From a virus (taxonomy: Duplodnaviria; Heunggongvirae; Uroviricota; Caudoviricetes), in IMG/VR virus record IMGVR_UViG_2703718815_000007: 4,992 nt of DNA. One strand, written 5' to 3'. Numbering within the stretch: the stretch's first letter is position 1; each line of letters starts with the position of its first letter. This document shows positions 139 to 4,992 of the stretch, one piece after another. Below the pieces are notes generated by a model. The model saw only the letters and a list, made by a program, of their open reading frames with translations. It had not been told where the DNA came from and made no database searches. Position numbers and translations under genes: made by a program.

Positions 139-162
139 GGTGTAGTTAATGGTGTAGTTAAT
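139..162. repeat. perfect 12-bp tandem direct repeat GGTGTAGTTAAT x2 abutting the int start codon
   Basis: 139-150 and 151-162 are identical. Position suggests an operator or arm-type site, but function is not shown. Confidence 0.75.
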
Positions 163-1630: not shown

Positions 1631-1699
1631 GTATCCAAATGAATCAAAATAGTTTTTTTCTAATTGCGCCTATTTCAGCGACGAACACCACATCACTGT

Positions 1700-1790
1700 T
1701 TGCCATTCCATAAACACCCTGACACAATCCGACACAACCCAACCCAATAACCCACCCAATGACTCTTTAAGAAACAACAAAGGGGGAATT
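1700..1790 (+). promoter_or_regulatory. alpA upstream region: CA-rich tract with GACACAA direct repeats, possible weak promoter, strong SD
   Basis: GACACAATCC/GACACAACCC at 1721-1740 (10-bp spacing), CCCAAT x2 at 1743-1748 and 1755-1760. Possible TTGCCA (1700-1705)-17-CACAAT (1723-1728), which is weak. SD AAGGGGG at 1780-1786, 4 nt before GTG 1791. Confidence 0.3.
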
Positions 1791-1979
1791 GTGTTAAGCA
1801 CAGATCGCTTTATACGTGAAAAAGAATGTCAGCAACTTACAGGCCTGAGCCGTTCATGTCGGTACCGCCTGGAAAAAACCGGACAATTCCCATCACGGCG
1901 TAAGCTCGGCGGTCGTTCCGTTGGCTGGTCTTTATCCGAAGTTCTGGCATGGAAGGAAAGCTGCGAGGCAGTTCACTAA
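1791..1979 (+). CDS. alpA: AlpA/Vis-family small HTH regulator (prophage transcriptional regulator / excisionase-like)
   Basis: 62-aa ORF with GTG start and strong SD. Sequence ...CQQLTGLSRSCRYRLEKTGQFPSRRKLGGRSVGWSLSEVLAWKES fits the AlpA-family pattern (HTH followed by ...G.RSVGW...EV..W). Placement immediately after a P4-type int is typical. Family call is by recollection, not search. Confidence 0.8.
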   Translation: MLSTDRFIREKECQQLTGLSRSCRYRLEKTGQFPSRRKLGGRSVGWSLSEVLAWKESCEAVH

Positions 1980-2031: not shown

Positions 2032-3312
2032 ATGAATACTGGATATTCTCCCGAACAAGGGCGGGGCTTCGTTCGTCCTGAAAAACAGAATCTGCAAAAT
2101 TTTGCCGAAATTATTCCGGTTATTTCCGGCCTTACTGGCGGGAGTGAAACCAATATTGTTAACGCCAGAGCGTTGCAGATGTTTGATGATAAAAAGGGAG
2201 TAAATTTAACTTACACCCCTGACGGCAATCAGAATATGAGCATTATCTCTGAGTCAGGTTTCTACAAACTAATAAAAACAAAAAGCGCCCCGTTGCCGGA
2301 GCGCCTTTGTGAACAATTAACCTACTGCGCAAAAAATGAATCTGAGCAGTGGGATTATATCAACCGTGTGGTGAAGCGCCACTATTGCCGGATAACAGGC
2401 AAAACAAAGGCGACCGCAAAAGGGTCGCCAGTGGGAACAAGGGAAAACAAAAGCATCACCAACAATGCCACATTTGCGGCTGGTGGGCAATGTGATCAGT
2501 CAGATTTGGTTCGTTCCAAGGTTTGCAACGAGAGTTTTTTCCTGCGCTCTTTAAGGAATTTCTCAAGAGCAAACGAACAAGGTGCGAATCTTTCTGATTC
2601 ATGCTCTATCTTTCTGCGCCGTCTTTTCCGTGTCGGTGATAATGTTTTGGTCAATTCTTTATCGGTCATTGTGTTGTCCTGCATAGCAATGCGCCGTAAT
2701 ACCTTACACCACGGCGCTGGTGATGGTTATTCCTGCTCTTTGGCCTTGCGACGCTGGCGGTATTCAACTTCTCGCTTTAATGCTGCTGTTACAAACTGCC
2801 CTGTACTTTCACCAGGCATTTTTACCGCCTCAACATTGTTCATAACTTCATGCGGAACCCTTGCCGCAACTGTTTGTGATTTTGCGTTTACTGCTTTTGT
2901 TGCCATGTTGTGTACCCCTTACAAAAAACAAATGCAGTATGCAGGAAAAAAAATAAGTGTTCAACACTTGACGTGTTTAACACCAGGGCTTAAATTGGTG
3001 TTCAACACCTTACTGATGCAAGGTGCAGAAACGACGAAACCCGGCAGTGCGCTAACACTAACCGGGCTTCTAACCACCAACGATAGAAAGCGTATCGAGG
3101 TAGCTATGAGAAATTATACCAGACACCCGCAAGGGCGGGACTCGTACAACCTGAATAAATACATCTGGCGTTTTATCGCCCTGAGCACGGCACAACCGCG
3201 CGTGATTACCATTGAGGCCACCAGCGAACAGGAAGCGCGTCAGCAATCTCCTGATGGCTGCGTGATGGTATTCGCTGCCCGTATTCGTCAGGGGGTACGC
3301 CATGTGCAATAA
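2032..3312 (+). CDS. uncertain 426-codon open frame, probably not a single gene; the first ~130 codons look protein-like, the middle looks like antisense read-through, the last 68 codons are the separate Icd/Kil-like ORF
   Basis: Seen: no stop in this frame from 2032 to 3312. Codons ~135-290 are Cys/Ser/Leu/Arg/Phe-rich, and this frame is wobble-aligned antisense to two minus-strand ORFs with their own RBS, promoter and terminators. The segment MSIISESGFYKLIKTKSAP resembles the Bro-N/antirepressor ISE.GLY.LI..S motif, but that is a weak by-eye resemblance. Two minus-oriented terminator hairpins lie inside it. Confidence 0.25.
   Translation: MNTGYSPEQGRGFVRPEKQNLQNFAEIIPVISGLTGGSETNIVNARALQMFDDKKGVNLTYTPDGNQNMSIISESGFYKLIKTKSAPLPERLCEQLTYCAKNESEQWDYINRVVKRHYCRITGKTKATAKGSPVGTRENKSITNNATFAAGGQCDQSDLVRSKVCNESFFLRSLRNFSRANEQGANLSDSCSIFLRRLFRVGDNVLVNSLSVIVLSCIAMRRNTLHHGAGDGYSCSLALRRWRYSTSRFNAAVTNCPVLSPGIFTASTLFITSCGTLAATVCDFAFTAFVAMLCTPYKKQMQYAGKKISVQHLTCLTPGLKLVFNTLLMQGAETTKPGSALTLTGLLTTNDRKRIEVAMRNYTRHPQGRDSYNLNKYIWRFIALSTAQPRVITIEATSEQEARQQSPDGCVMVFAARIRQGVRHVQ
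2271..2304 (-). terminator. candidate intrinsic terminator for leftward transcription (distal of two)
   Basis: GC-rich imperfect stem 2285-2292 with 2297-2304 (7 of 8 pairs), loop TTGC. On the minus strand it is followed by TTTTTGTTTTTATT (complement of 2271-2284). On the plus strand it is followed only by CTTTGTG. Confidence 0.4.
2401..2429 (-). terminator. candidate intrinsic terminator for the leftward RHH cassette (proximal)
   Basis: Perfect 7-bp stem GGCGACC (2409-2415) with GGTCGCC (2423-2429), 7-nt loop. On the minus strand it is followed by TTTGTTTT (complement of 2401-2408). It lies 66 nt beyond the stop of the 62-aa minus ORF. Confidence 0.55.
2496..2684 (-). CDS. small highly basic protein of unknown function, second gene of the leftward cassette
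   Basis: 62-aa ORF MQDNTMTDKELTKTLSPTRKRRRRKIEHESERFAPCSFALEKFLKERRKKLSLQTLERTKSD. The internal ATG at 2669 has AGGA 7 nt upstream, so the product is probably 57 aa. Protein-like K/E/R-rich composition, same strand as and just downstream of the RHH gene, followed by a terminator. No family recognised. Confidence 0.4.
   Translation of the reverse strand: MQDNTMTDKELTKTLSPTRKRRRRKIEHESERFAPCSFALEKFLKERRKKLSLQTLERTKSD
2727..2906 (-). CDS. Arc/MetJ-like ribbon-helix-helix DNA-binding protein, candidate repressor of the switch region
   Basis: 59-aa ORF, hand-translated (below the track's length cutoff): MATKAVNAKSQTVAARVPHEVMNNVEAVKMPGESTGQFVTAALKREVEYRQRRKAKEQE. Fits RHH layout: beta-strand (VAARVPHEV), helix A, G-x-S/T turn (PGESTG), helix B (QFVTAALKREVE), basic tail. 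SD AAGGGG 8 nt upstream of the ATG. Fold assignment is by eye. Confidence 0.6.
   Translation of the reverse strand: MATKAVNAKSQTVAARVPHEVMNNVEAVKMPGESTGQFVTAALKREVEYRQRRKAKEQE
2936..2964 (-). promoter_or_regulatory. candidate sigma70 promoter for the leftward RHH cassette
   Basis: On the minus strand: TTGAAC (complement of 2959-2964, inside operator site 1), 17-bp spacer, CATACT (complement of 2936-2941). This gives a leader of about 23 nt carrying the AAGGGG SD. Confidence 0.35.
2955..3009. promoter_or_regulatory. operator array: three palindromes sharing the core GTGTT-N-AACAC
   Basis: Site 1 at 2955-2969 AAGTGTT-C-AACACTT (7-bp arms); site 2 at 2973-2983 GTGTT-T-AACAC; site 3 at 2997-3009 GGTGTT-C-AACACC (6-bp arms). 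The sites overlap both candidate promoters. Confidence 0.65.
2968..2996 (+). promoter_or_regulatory. candidate sigma70 promoter for the rightward icd-like/replication operon
   Basis: TTGACG (2968-2973), 17-bp spacer, TAAATT (2991-2996). Operator site 2 sits in the spacer and site 3 at the predicted start. The 5' UTR would be about 100 nt to ATG 3106. Confidence 0.4.
3106..3312 (+). CDS. small protein, first gene of the rightward operon; possibly Icd/Kil-like (positional analogue of P4 kil)
   Basis: 68 aa: MRNYTRHPQGRDSYNLNKYIWRFIALSTAQPRVITIEATSEQEARQQSPDGCVMVFAARIRQGVRHVQ. SD GAGG 5 nt upstream. The in-frame ATG at 3016 has no SD and lies about 13 nt from the predicted start, so it is disfavoured. 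The Icd-like label is from memory of annotations in P4-like prophages and is low-certainty. Confidence 0.5.
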   Translation: MRNYTRHPQGRDSYNLNKYIWRFIALSTAQPRVITIEATSEQEARQQSPDGCVMVFAARIRQGVRHVQ

Positions 3313-3769
3313 CACCCGTCCGGACGCAGCCGCCGAAGCCATCAAAACGCTGATGCACGCGCTGATTGATATTTCTGTTATCGCAGACAAGGCGCATAAG
3401 CACGCCACCAGCGAAACAGAATATGCCGGGGCTTTCGTTCCTCACTCACTGGCTGTTATGCAATTTAGTGCTGATATGGCACTGAATGAGGCCAGGGCTA
3501 TCCTGATTGCTGATTGTGAAAATGGGGGGGGGGTTATGCGTGATGATCGTTTTAATGCCCTGAAACAGGAATTTTATGGCGCACCGGATGATACAGGCGA
3601 TGCGTTGCTGGTTGTTAATGACCTGATAAAGGCCGCATGTTTTTTAATTGGAACCGCTGAACATTCAGGAACCGGCAACGATATTCTTATTATTGCGTCG
3701 GATTATGCTGAATATGTGGCAGAGGCGCGTTACAGAAGAAAATTCCCGGAGAATGTAAGCCATGTGTGA
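3302..3769 (+). CDS. hypothetical protein (155 aa), translationally coupled to the upstream ORF; contains an in-frame G10 tract
   Basis: ATG 3302 overlaps the upstream stop (3310-3312). Strong SD AGGGGG at 3290-3295, 6 nt upstream. Protein-like composition. No family recognised. Confidence 0.65.
   Translation: MCNNTRPDAAAEAIKTLMHALIDISVIADKAHKHATSETEYAGAFVPHSLAVMQFSADMALNEARAILIADCENGGGVMRDDRFNALKQEFYGAPDDTGDALLVVNDLIKAACFLIGTAEHSGTGNDILIIASDYAEYVAEARYRRKFPENVSHV
3524..3533 (+). repeat. homopolymeric G10 tract inside the 155-aa ORF (encodes GGG)
   Basis: Ten consecutive G read directly. G9 or G11 would give a stop within about 10 codons. Confidence 0.9.
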
Positions 3770-4300: not shown

Positions 4301-4992
4301 AACTGGCACCGAACTTAAAAAAACAGCCACACGACAAAATGACCGAAGTCATTATTTTTGCGGGTAGTGATGCCTGGGCGCACGCGAAACAGTGGCAGGA
4401 ACAGGACGGGCGACTTGCTGGCGACAACGTGCCACCTGTATGGCTTGGAGACAGCCAGCTTGACGAACTGGCAGACCTGAAAATTATCGACGATGGTCGC
4501 TATTGTGTCCGGCTATACAAGGCAGGCCACATCAAGCCGTCAAATATTAATGCCATCGGGCAAAAACTGGCGGCGGCAGGTGTACGGGATGCGAATTATT
4601 ACCCTGAGGGAATGCACAGCCAGAAGCTGGAGAACTGGCACGACTACCTGCAACGGATCCGCGAACAGGCAGAGCGCGGGGAAATACTTACTGACGAGCA
4701 ATACAGCCAGCGAAAAACCACGCTACCAATGAGTATTGGATCTACAGGGTACGACACACAGCTTGATTATGTCGTTAAGGGCGTTATTCCGGCTAATTCA
4801 TTGTGCAGCACATACGGCGCGAGCGGTTCTTATAAATCGTTCCTCGCGTGTTCCTGGGCGTGTCATGTTGCCACGGGGCGCCACTGGGGAGGCCGCAGGG
4901 TTGCGCATGGTTCGGTGATGTATGTTGTCGGTGAAGGTGGCATTGGTGTCCCCCGCCGTATCAGGGCATGGGAAATCGTTAATGATGAACGG
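4297..4992 (+). CDS. replication protein, 5' partial (runs off window): possible Toprim-like N-terminal region fused to a RepA/AAA_25-like P-loop NTPase
   Basis: Hand-translated 232 codons with no stop to the window end. SD AGGGG 6 nt upstream. C-terminal part YVVKGVIPANSLCSTYGASGSYKSFLACSWACHVATGRHWGGRRVAHGSVMYVVGEGG matches the RepA/AAA_25 pattern (...G..GSGKSFLAL..A.AVATGR.W.GR.V..G.VLY...E). The N-terminal region has E...DDG spacing that may be Toprim-like; that part is tentative. Confidence 0.8.
   Translation, partial: MKLAPNLKKQPHDKMTEVIIFAGSDAWAHAKQWQEQDGRLAGDNVPPVWLGDSQLDELADLKIIDDGRYCVRLYKAGHIKPSNINAIGQKLAAAGVRDANYYPEGMHSQKLENWHDYLQRIREQAERGEILTDEQYSQRKTTLPMSIGSTGYDTQLDYVVKGVIPANSLCSTYGASGSYKSFLACSWACHVATGRHWGGRRVAHGSVMYVVGEGGIGVPRRIRAWEIVNDER

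Follow-up and report, generated by a model that had tools for sequence, protein, structure and literature searches.

What is the function of the C/A-rich DNA that immediately precedes alpA in a family of bacterial islands related to phages? The question is raised by a viral sequence of 4,992 nucleotides (IMG/VR record IMGVR_UViG_2703718815_000007, Caudoviricetes), hereafter called the window, in which the plus strand at 1681-1760 consists largely of C and A and contains short repeats, shared in part with a region downstream of the integrase gene int. An initial annotation, made from the sequence alone, had proposed either a regulator-binding motif common to int and alpA or a structured leader. 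The tract is the core sigma-70 promoter of alpA, followed by the untranslated leader of the gene. We further propose, with a probability of roughly 0.55, that it carries putative boxes for the AlpA protein itself, as part of a set of four sites coupling excision of the element to alpA autoregulation.

On the plus strand of the window, Pfam identifies int (185-1414) and alpA (1791-1979), which are followed by several small genes and then by a DUF4222 gene and the beginning of a gene for an AAA_25 / RepA-type helicase. Parts of it are matched in 1850 of 5426 complete E. coli genomes, and the top matches are islands annotated with an identical gene order, including relatives of EcCICFT073 and of the capsid-forming EcCIEDL933; matches to islands, among them these relatives and the clone D i14 island, reach 84-97% coverage and 84-95% identity. 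Co-oriented int and alpA at the left end, small genes, a replicase and a specific att site make up the layout of Gram-negative phage-inducible chromosomal islands (PICIs) and capsid-forming PICIs (cf-PICIs). Given the gene order and the island matches, the window is therefore the left end of an E. coli-type PICI / cf-PICI, and its first bases match the junction of one island (L003), adjoining ilvG/yifB. Induction and packaging by helper phages have been shown in the literature for the relatives EcCICFT073 and EcCIEDL933 (PMC6092414; 10.1101/2022.09.08.507074). An AlpA-based search of genome contigs yielded 3 loci and a homologous-protein search 19 near relatives; the comparisons below were made on 49 distinct int-alpA spacers, from E. 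coli genomes and IMG/VR contigs.

The composition of the tract is indeed exceptional. With 30 A, 33 C, 5 G and 12 T, positions 1681-1760 reach 79% C+A, the top value among all 80-nt segments of the window (mean 0.52, standard deviation 0.087), although the wording "almost entirely" C and A was slightly overstated, 17 of the 80 bases being G or T. The repeats had been placed correctly: GACACAA is found on the plus strand at 1721 and 1731, as well as at 1439 and 1459, with one further copy in the window, at 4503 on the minus strand, and CCCAAT occurs at 1743 and 1755 only. The motif GACACAAC, reported at 1439 and 1459, has a third copy at 1731; the copy at 1721 reads GACACAAT, which is compatible with the original wording. 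The promoter-proximal DNA is built of degenerate decamers, GACACAATnn, which are repeated head to tail in a single orientation, and it is this arrangement that makes the strands asymmetric.

The promoter is recognized by two elements on the plus strand. The -35 hexamer TTGCCA (1700-1705), matching the consensus at 5 of 6 positions and invariant in 49/49 distinct relatives, is followed after a 17-nt spacer by the extended -10 TGaCACAAT (1720-1728), with the hexamer CACAAT at 1723-1728 and the TG one base upstream of it, as in sigma-70 promoters of the extended -10 type. The arrangement TTGCCA-N17-(C/A)ACAAT is kept in 49/49 distinct relatives (33 with TG+CACAAT and 16 with AACAAT); sub-families differ both in the sequence immediately before the -35 and within the spacer. 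Since the promoter scan as a whole was not enriched, 5 sites being found against 4.0 expected in shuffled sequences, the promoter call rests on this conservation and on start-site data.

The latter come from Cappable-seq of strain EDL933, where starts of the alpA homologue EDL933_RS08635 are listed at 1,681,879 (7/8 conditions), 1,681,887 (5/8) and 1,681,896 (1/8) (PMC10469882, supplementary file 6). The main start corresponds to position 1980 of island L120, the third A of cGACACA, 8 nt past the AACAAT -10, and the second one lies 6 nt past the CACAAT of the next repeat unit, so that in this relative 5' ends are found 6-8 nt downstream of a -10. At the same offset, the alpA transcript of the window is predicted by homology to start at A1736 on the plus strand (the A of GACACA^AC). 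The first GACACAA (within unit 1721-1728) is part of the extended -10 and the second straddles the transcription start, two features which the initial annotation had missed. It had also foreseen that transcription of alpA from a promoter outside the tract would speak against its proposal; Cappable-seq puts the start inside the homologous EDL933 tract (PMC10469882).

The resulting 5' leader of alpA (1736-1790, plus strand) is 55 nt long, C/A-rich and predicted to be unstructured; its length across relatives is 43-46, 50 or 54-55 nt. It contains a near-invariant block, ACTCTTTAAGAAA (1762-1774, plus strand), identical in 47/49 distinct relatives and located directly before the ribosome-binding site, and leads into the Shine-Dalgarno sequence AGGGGG and the GTG start codon (1781-1793), conserved in the alignments. 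The block resembles the leader enhancer of T7 gene 10 (CUUUAAGAA). A resemblance to the P2 Cox-type boxes upstream of P4 vis (CTTTAAGTGG) was observed as well. The data do not support a structured leader, the second of the functions initially proposed: shuffled versions of the 98-nt leader RNA fold just as well (mean of -13.0, against a minimum free energy of -12.4 kcal/mol for the leader, z = +0.23), and an Rfam scan of 1400-2000 was without match even at E <= 1, so that a structured RNA leader or riboswitch was rejected. A minus-strand open reading frame (ORF) of 43 residues at 1670-1801 was likewise discarded, as the 5- and 10-nt indels found among relatives would shift its frame.

A C/A-rich, unstructured leader of this kind might still act at the RNA level: it could enhance translation, be recognised by a GU-rich small RNA (GcvB, for instance) or offer a loading site for Rho. 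It is poor in G (7 in 55 nt), with an A-rich end preceding a strong ribosome-binding site, and C/A-rich leaders are known both as translation enhancers and as GcvB targets. The predicted pairing with GcvB R1 (-16.2 kcal/mol) is, however, worse than the mean of shuffled leaders (-20.1); 87% of these pair at least as well, the site ranks 383 out of 493 sequence windows and the value varies among relatives, so that a GcvB target was rejected. For Rho loading a leader of 55 nt is short. More generally, an RNA-level role would leave unexplained the 10-nt periodicity described below, the presence of units upstream of the start (1711 and 1721) and the match to DNA arrays in the att arms, and C+A richness is not a conserved property; we consider such a role very unlikely.

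The repeat itself extends over 1711-1760 of the plus strand, and was delineated by autocorrelation, by matrix search and by the comparison of four sequence types. Its units are TAAACACC at 1711, GACACAAT at 1721, GACACAAC at 1731, AACCCAAT at 1741 and CACCCAAT at 1753, the last one 2 nt out of phase; three to four of them can be written as GACACAATnn, and the putative AlpA boxes which they define span about -25 to +25. A lag of 10 is the sole maximum of the autocorrelation in types Ib, II and III (p of 0.0008 or lower in all three), and is tied with a lag of 12 in type I, to which the window belongs (p = 0.013). When aligned as RACNCAATnn units, with the invariant block ACTCTTTAAGAAA as anchor, type I reads GACACAATcc GACACAACcc AACCCAATaa cCCACCCAAT, type Ib GACACAATcc GACGCACCac AACACAATag GACACCAAAT, type II GACACAATca GACACATccc AACGCAATag AACACGAAAT, and type III, found in EDL933 and Sakai, GGAACAATac GACACAATaa GACACCTGAT, with exactly one 10-nt unit fewer.

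The RACNCAAT periodic pattern is thus kept in the four types, all of which have also retained one unit, RACNCAATA, some 20-30 nt ahead of the invariant block, despite the divergence of its surroundings. A motif search across the element and its relatives, as the initial annotation had suggested, leads to a qualified answer: ACAAY at 10-bp phase is conserved, but GACACAAC itself is not the conserved unit. The C+A excess is not conserved either, being 0.80, 0.75, 0.70 and 0.63 in the four promoter types. The periodic unit, rather than base composition, is the retained feature of the tract.

All this could be accommodated by a promoter and a leader only, the decamers being slipped-strand relics of a unit containing the -10, with no set-wise binding of any protein and with a likeness to the post-int array that merely follows from the short A/C-rich core. 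An extended -10 accounts in full for the first box, the staggered EDL933 starts track successive -10-like hexamers, the second box and the length of the leader vary freely, by indels of 5 and 10 nt, and C+A declines from type to type. Against this account stand the maintenance of the RACNCAATA unit in otherwise diverged sequences and the distribution of the motif.

This distribution was evaluated by a matrix trained exclusively on the arrays of six-unit type found after int. In the window, this post-int array occupies 1439-1497 of the plus strand, with ACAAY cores spaced by exactly 10 bp, at 1442, 1452, 1462, 1472, 1482 and 1492; no relative has lost the phase or the core, not even L005, whose flanks are altered, and in one relative a further 10-nt unit is present. 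Phased runs of at least 4 units were found in 0/2000 windows simulated by a first-order Markov model. In the alpA promoter (PalpA), the phased triple 1711/1721/1731 scores 20.7 bits; the triple starting at 1721 (15.9 bits), which is the one tested, is reached in 0.7% of simulated 5-kb windows and in 0.04% of composition-matched shuffles of the tract.

On the window, the matrix identifies four clusters, namely the array, PalpA and two upstream of int, all the remainder scoring no more than 6.1 bits. Single units of at least 8.5 bits number 16: nine belong to the array and the int arm, three to the region under study (1721, 1731 and 1771, in one 10-bp register) and four are scattered. Over the whole 11.7 kb of EcCICFT073, just four clusters reach at least 12 bits, corresponding to the attL arm, the post-int array, PalpA and the attR end, and the four-cluster pattern is also found in type II and type III relatives. 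Such a restriction of phased matches to four functionally linked places, together with the composition-matched probability of 0.0004, argues against the promoter-and-leader account, as does a related island with a different AlpA variant (L013), which independently repeats its own arm motif before alpA; we regard that account as unlikely, if worth keeping in mind. The common regulator-binding motif that had been proposed to link the control of int and alpA is supported in a modified form, the statistics and the comparisons pointing to the phased ACAAY-type unit as a candidate site.

The two clusters upstream of int are both on the minus strand. Four phased units (GGAACAAG twice, GGTACAAC and TGCACAAG; 95-132) lie at about -14 to -50 of the int promoter (Pint), reaching the TG of its extended -10 TGcAATGAT (129-137); they score 28.8 bits in sequence outside the training set and are conserved in relatives, and a near-copy of them is present at the right end of EcCICFT073. 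A distal block of the ACAAY-type motif (32-59), nearer the att core, scores 16.9 bits. Next to the phased units, a 12-bp doublet, GGTGTAGTTAAT x2 (139-162, plus strand), includes the int start, A144, as placed by homology to the EDL933 start at 1,680,288. The doublet occurs once per att arm, about 130 bp from the core on the int side and about 90 bp on the other (the latter as seen, in reverse complement, at the right end of EcCICFT073, L009), so that both EcCICFT073 ends share one module, made of phased units followed by the doublet. Its position is analogous to that of the annotated arm doublets of P4 and of the IntS P' sites of KplE1, and by this analogy the doublet probably represents arm-type sites for the integrase (Int). 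A "doubled motif", TGTATTGC, has been described as unique to helper-embedded PICIs (PMC10111431); since a doublet is present in each att arm of islands of the window type, the architecture is, on sequence grounds, not limited to those and is wider than reported, with a different sequence.

Could the phased units themselves be arm-type sites, bound by the N-terminal domain of Int, which would then silence alpA in the integrated island by covering its -10 and start? The int product is a tyrosine integrase with an Arm-DNA-bind_3 N-terminal domain and a Phage_integrase domain (Pfam, and RefSeq annotation of relatives), and the position of the boxes suits repression. Arm sites of the lambda type are also tandem direct repeats of about 10 bp. 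Moreover, the P4 Int N-terminus represses Pint (Piazzolla 2006, as cited in PMC2951348), and EcCICFT073 AlpA is described as leaving Pint unaffected, even though the -35 region of this promoter is overlapped by four units (PMC6092414). We nevertheless consider this alternative quite unlikely: the separate doublet, once per arm, already offers four sites for a tetramer at the P4 arm-doublet and KplE1 IntS P' position, the tandem units beside the -35 in KplE1 are sites for a recombination directionality factor (RDF), and the last base of the unit (GTTCC or GTTCG) tracks the AlpA helix (SRSCR or CRTTR, respectively) and not the similarity of Int N-domains, a weak correlation as it is based on three families.

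AlpA is a more attractive candidate. The 62-residue product of alpA (1791-1979, plus strand) matches Pfam Phage_AlpA (2.7e-18), and its AlphaFold model (mean predicted local distance difference test, pLDDT, 87.6) is a winged helix of the excisionase fold, with best matches in PDB to the GIsul2 excisionase 8C3T (template modelling score, TM, 0.83), RdfS, TorI and Pukovnik Xis; 8C3T is also matched by sequence (1.3e-6). The element thus encodes a protein of the required type, and the units are direct repeats in one orientation, spaced by about one helical turn and found in the att arms beside Int arm-type sites, as is typical of RDF sites. Experiments on KplE1 have shown that TorI occupies three GTTCG units in tandem, phased by 10 bp and directly adjoining the -35 of intS, as well as a more distant pair, the -10 being covered by arm sites for IntS (PMC2951348). 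The similarity of this layout, the GTTCG-type units, such as ATGGTTCGAT, carried by more distant islands (L013 and L015), and the repetition of the arm units in L013, in inverted orientation, upstream of its own alpA, which encodes a different AlpA variant, led us to assign the ACAAY units to AlpA, leaving the 12-bp doublets as probable Int sites. The AlpA of EcCICFT073 increases expression from the promoter region of its own gene and, when overproduced, causes int-dependent excision and replication (PMC6092414).

In the mechanism that we propose, AlpA would bind the decamers cooperatively, head to tail and on one face of the helix, like Xis, TorI, Cox and Apl. The boxes of the att arms would serve excision, and those over about -25 to +3 of PalpA, with weaker ones down to +25, would autoregulate alpA and link the expression of the gene with the machinery of recombination. 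Fold and layout lead us to infer AlpA as the binding protein, and the sign of the regulatory effect is likewise inferred. In the literature, we found neither a mapped AlpA site of a PICI, by footprint, gel shift or chromatin immunoprecipitation (ChIP), nor an identified helper inducer.

Several observations weigh against AlpA boxes in the promoter. The motif is low in information, its core being ACAA, and its best copy in the tract coincides with the -10 hexamer, which sigma-70 alone would explain. Close relatives vary most in the second box (1731-1738), which they carry as GACGCACC, GACCCAAC, GACTTAAC or GACCTAAC, and 5-nt deletions at this box break, in a few of them, the phase with the downstream units; PalpA of type Ib does not reach the threshold of the matrix, and in relatives with an extra gene between int and alpA (L015, L117 and L118) no such boxes were found before alpA. 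Furthermore, boxes at about -25 to +25 predict repression, whereas AlpA is reported to activate PalpA, and the same study describes its lack of effect on the EcCICFT073 Pint mentioned above (PMC6092414). Finally, the matrix does not recognise the sites of TorI, lambda Xis or P4. An identity of the ACAAY motif with any of these sites was accordingly rejected, and, as TorI sites are missed, the parallel with KplE1 is one of architecture, not of sequence.

The boxes might instead be the target of a helper-phage factor, for example an excisionase- or Cox-like protein, switching on alpA as P2 Cox, through phased boxes, does the P4 promoter upstream of vis. Lambda and phi80 helper prophages raise alpA transcription independently of SOS, through an inducer which that report does not identify (PMC6092414); P4 has three boxes (CTTTAAGTGG) at 10-bp phase upstream of the promoter of its alpA homologue vis, and a protein of the AlpA family has been found able to replace a phage Xis (PMC11773190). 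The matrix, however, has no match at lambda Xis sites, and the boxes described here lie over and downstream of the -10, unlike the Cox boxes, which are upstream at PLL, making this explanation highly improbable. A broader possibility, which we regard as doubtful, is that the boxes are, rather than an ordinary operator, the induction switch of the PICI family, a protein of the excisionase fold polymerising from the spacer through the start and turning transcription on. The actor could be AlpA or a helper-phage inducer working as a Cox-like cross-activator, and activation might occur by promoter remodelling of the MerR type, or through RNA polymerase retained at the successive -10-like hexamers. 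At the att arms and on the six units of the post-int array, this filament would also build the excisive complex.

Repeats adjacent to an att site may also suggest replication iterons, similar to the TGTTCACC repeats of P4 ori/crr. The P4 type 1 iterons (TGTTCACC) share a TGTTC core with the units, adjoin attP and lie upstream of vis. Identical arrays are found, however, in relatives with three different replicases (a RepA-family helicase, DUF927 and a P4-family primase), and the origin of PICIs has been reported to lie downstream of pri (PMC10111431). As the arrays stay constant across the three replicase types, with which they do not co-vary, iterons were excluded, and we attach almost no weight to them.

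Other features of the region were recorded along with the arrays. Between the post-int array and PalpA, a hairpin formed by GGCGTAAA and TTTACGCC (1604-1627, no strand assigned) may act as a terminator for int and/or for the opposite strand. In the 1598-1630 region, an invariant run of six A flanks its 5' side and the T-run on the 3' side is weak and variable in relatives; the hairpin would terminate minus-strand transcripts better than int transcripts. A promoter for a minus-strand small RNA ending at 1604-1627 was looked for and not found. A block at 1555-1600 (TTTACTG..TTTTTTGTACATTGGCGAATCA.TCTTAAAAA), between the array and the hairpin, is kept in all sub-families and could be a promoter or a small RNA. 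In L013, a different phased array follows int, with AATATC at 2618, 2628, 2638 and then 2679, and one AATATC is found near the alpA promoter region.

Downstream of alpA, a plus-strand ORF of 426 residues (2032-3312) is an artefact of a stop-free frame: within it, relatives annotate a Bro-N/antirepressor-like gene at the start and two small leftward genes. Three 11-bp palindromes, GTGTT(C/T)AACAC, lie at 2957-2967, 2973-2983 and 2998-3008, a number of matches reached by 0/200 shuffles. They flank a promoter-like TTGACG-17-TAAATT (2968-2996), located between a leftward YlcI/YnfO-like ORF (2727-2906) and a rightward icd-like operon, and the set looks like a repressor-operator switch. The global repressor of Gram-negative PICIs is said to be unclear. 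A copy of the palindrome with 1 mismatch is formed by the first 11 nt of alpA (1791-1801). A weak Rfam match to the SymR antitoxin RNA (3033-3105, minus strand; 32.8 bits against a gathering score of 61, E = 0.0019) immediately precedes the start of the icd-like gene, in antisense orientation. Lastly, a run of ten G (3524-3533) lies within an ORF of 155 residues (3302-3769), in a stretch where relatives annotate two shorter genes, which may point to a fusion or to a tract prone to slippage.

Gram-negative PICIs and cf-PICIs, which carry virulence and defence genes between enterobacteria, have AlpA as their master switch. As far as the published accounts are accessible, they define neither the promoter, start site or operator of a PICI alpA, nor how the gene is kept off and then turned on by a helper phage. 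The set of four sites proposed here, attL arm, attR arm, post-int array and PalpA, provides a testable lead on autoregulation, on the control of excision and on the helper inducer. The gain is local rather than conceptual, excisionases doubling as regulators via phased repeats being already established in P2, 186, P4 and KplE1.

Among the closest systems are EcCICFT073 and EcCIEDL933, members of the same element family, 77-99% identical to the window in int, alpA and the intergenic region, in which both AlpA and helper phages elicit a response of the alpA promoter region (Fillol-Salom 2018, PMC6092414; 10.1101/2022.09.08.507074). The accessible parts of these reports do not define promoter elements, start site and operator, for which the present analysis offers predictions. 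In contrast, the P. aeruginosa AlpA has little in common with the PICI protein beyond its name and a promoter whose start site carries a -10-like hexamer: it is a larger, unrelated, 21Q-like protein, which contacts DNA by residues 128-142 at a single GGGACG between -35 and -10 (PMC9371919), and an antitermination of this type was rejected as a coincidence of names.

Lambda Xis, on X1-X1.5-X2, forms a cooperative head-to-tail filament of winged-helix monomers on sites of uneven quality phased by about 10 bp, of which AlpA would form the counterpart; within X1, TGTTGTGT resembles GACACAAC read in reverse complement. The lambda sites, however, are confined to one arm and play no role in a promoter, the matrix gives no score there, and in sequence Xis is only remotely similar to AlpA. 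As for P4 Vis, P2 Cox and 186 Apl, these are small winged-helix RDFs acting on phased direct repeats both at att and at a switch promoter, for lysis-lysogeny or derepression; Vis is itself a Phage_AlpA member (1.7e-20) and regulates the promoter it is made from. Their sites were mapped experimentally, whereas those of the PICI AlpA are putative; they mostly repress from sites overlapping promoters, whereas the PICI protein is reported to activate; and the arm repeats (GGGGGCA) and boxes of P4 are unlike those of the window in sequence.

The best-studied parallel is with attL/intS of KplE1 (CPS-53). The int promoter is contained within attL there; RDF units at 10-bp phase abut its -35, a further block of them is located distally, and its -10 and start are overlain by arm sites for Int (Panis et al. 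2010, PMC2951348). The window shows the same layout, with its units at 95-132, distal block at 32-59 and doublet at 139-162, the RDF role being here putative, and the GTTCG core is common to more distant PICI relatives. The two systems differ in that the TorI gene is at the other prophage end and no TorI boxes are described at its own promoter, in that the motif of the window is GTTCC/GTTGT (ACAAY) and its matrix misses the TorI sites, and in that TorI represses intS, whereas EcCICFT073 AlpA is reported to leave Pint unaffected. The arrangement upstream of alpA is most likely another example of the excisionase-regulators represented by P2 Cox, 186 Apl, P4 Vis and KplE1 TorI.

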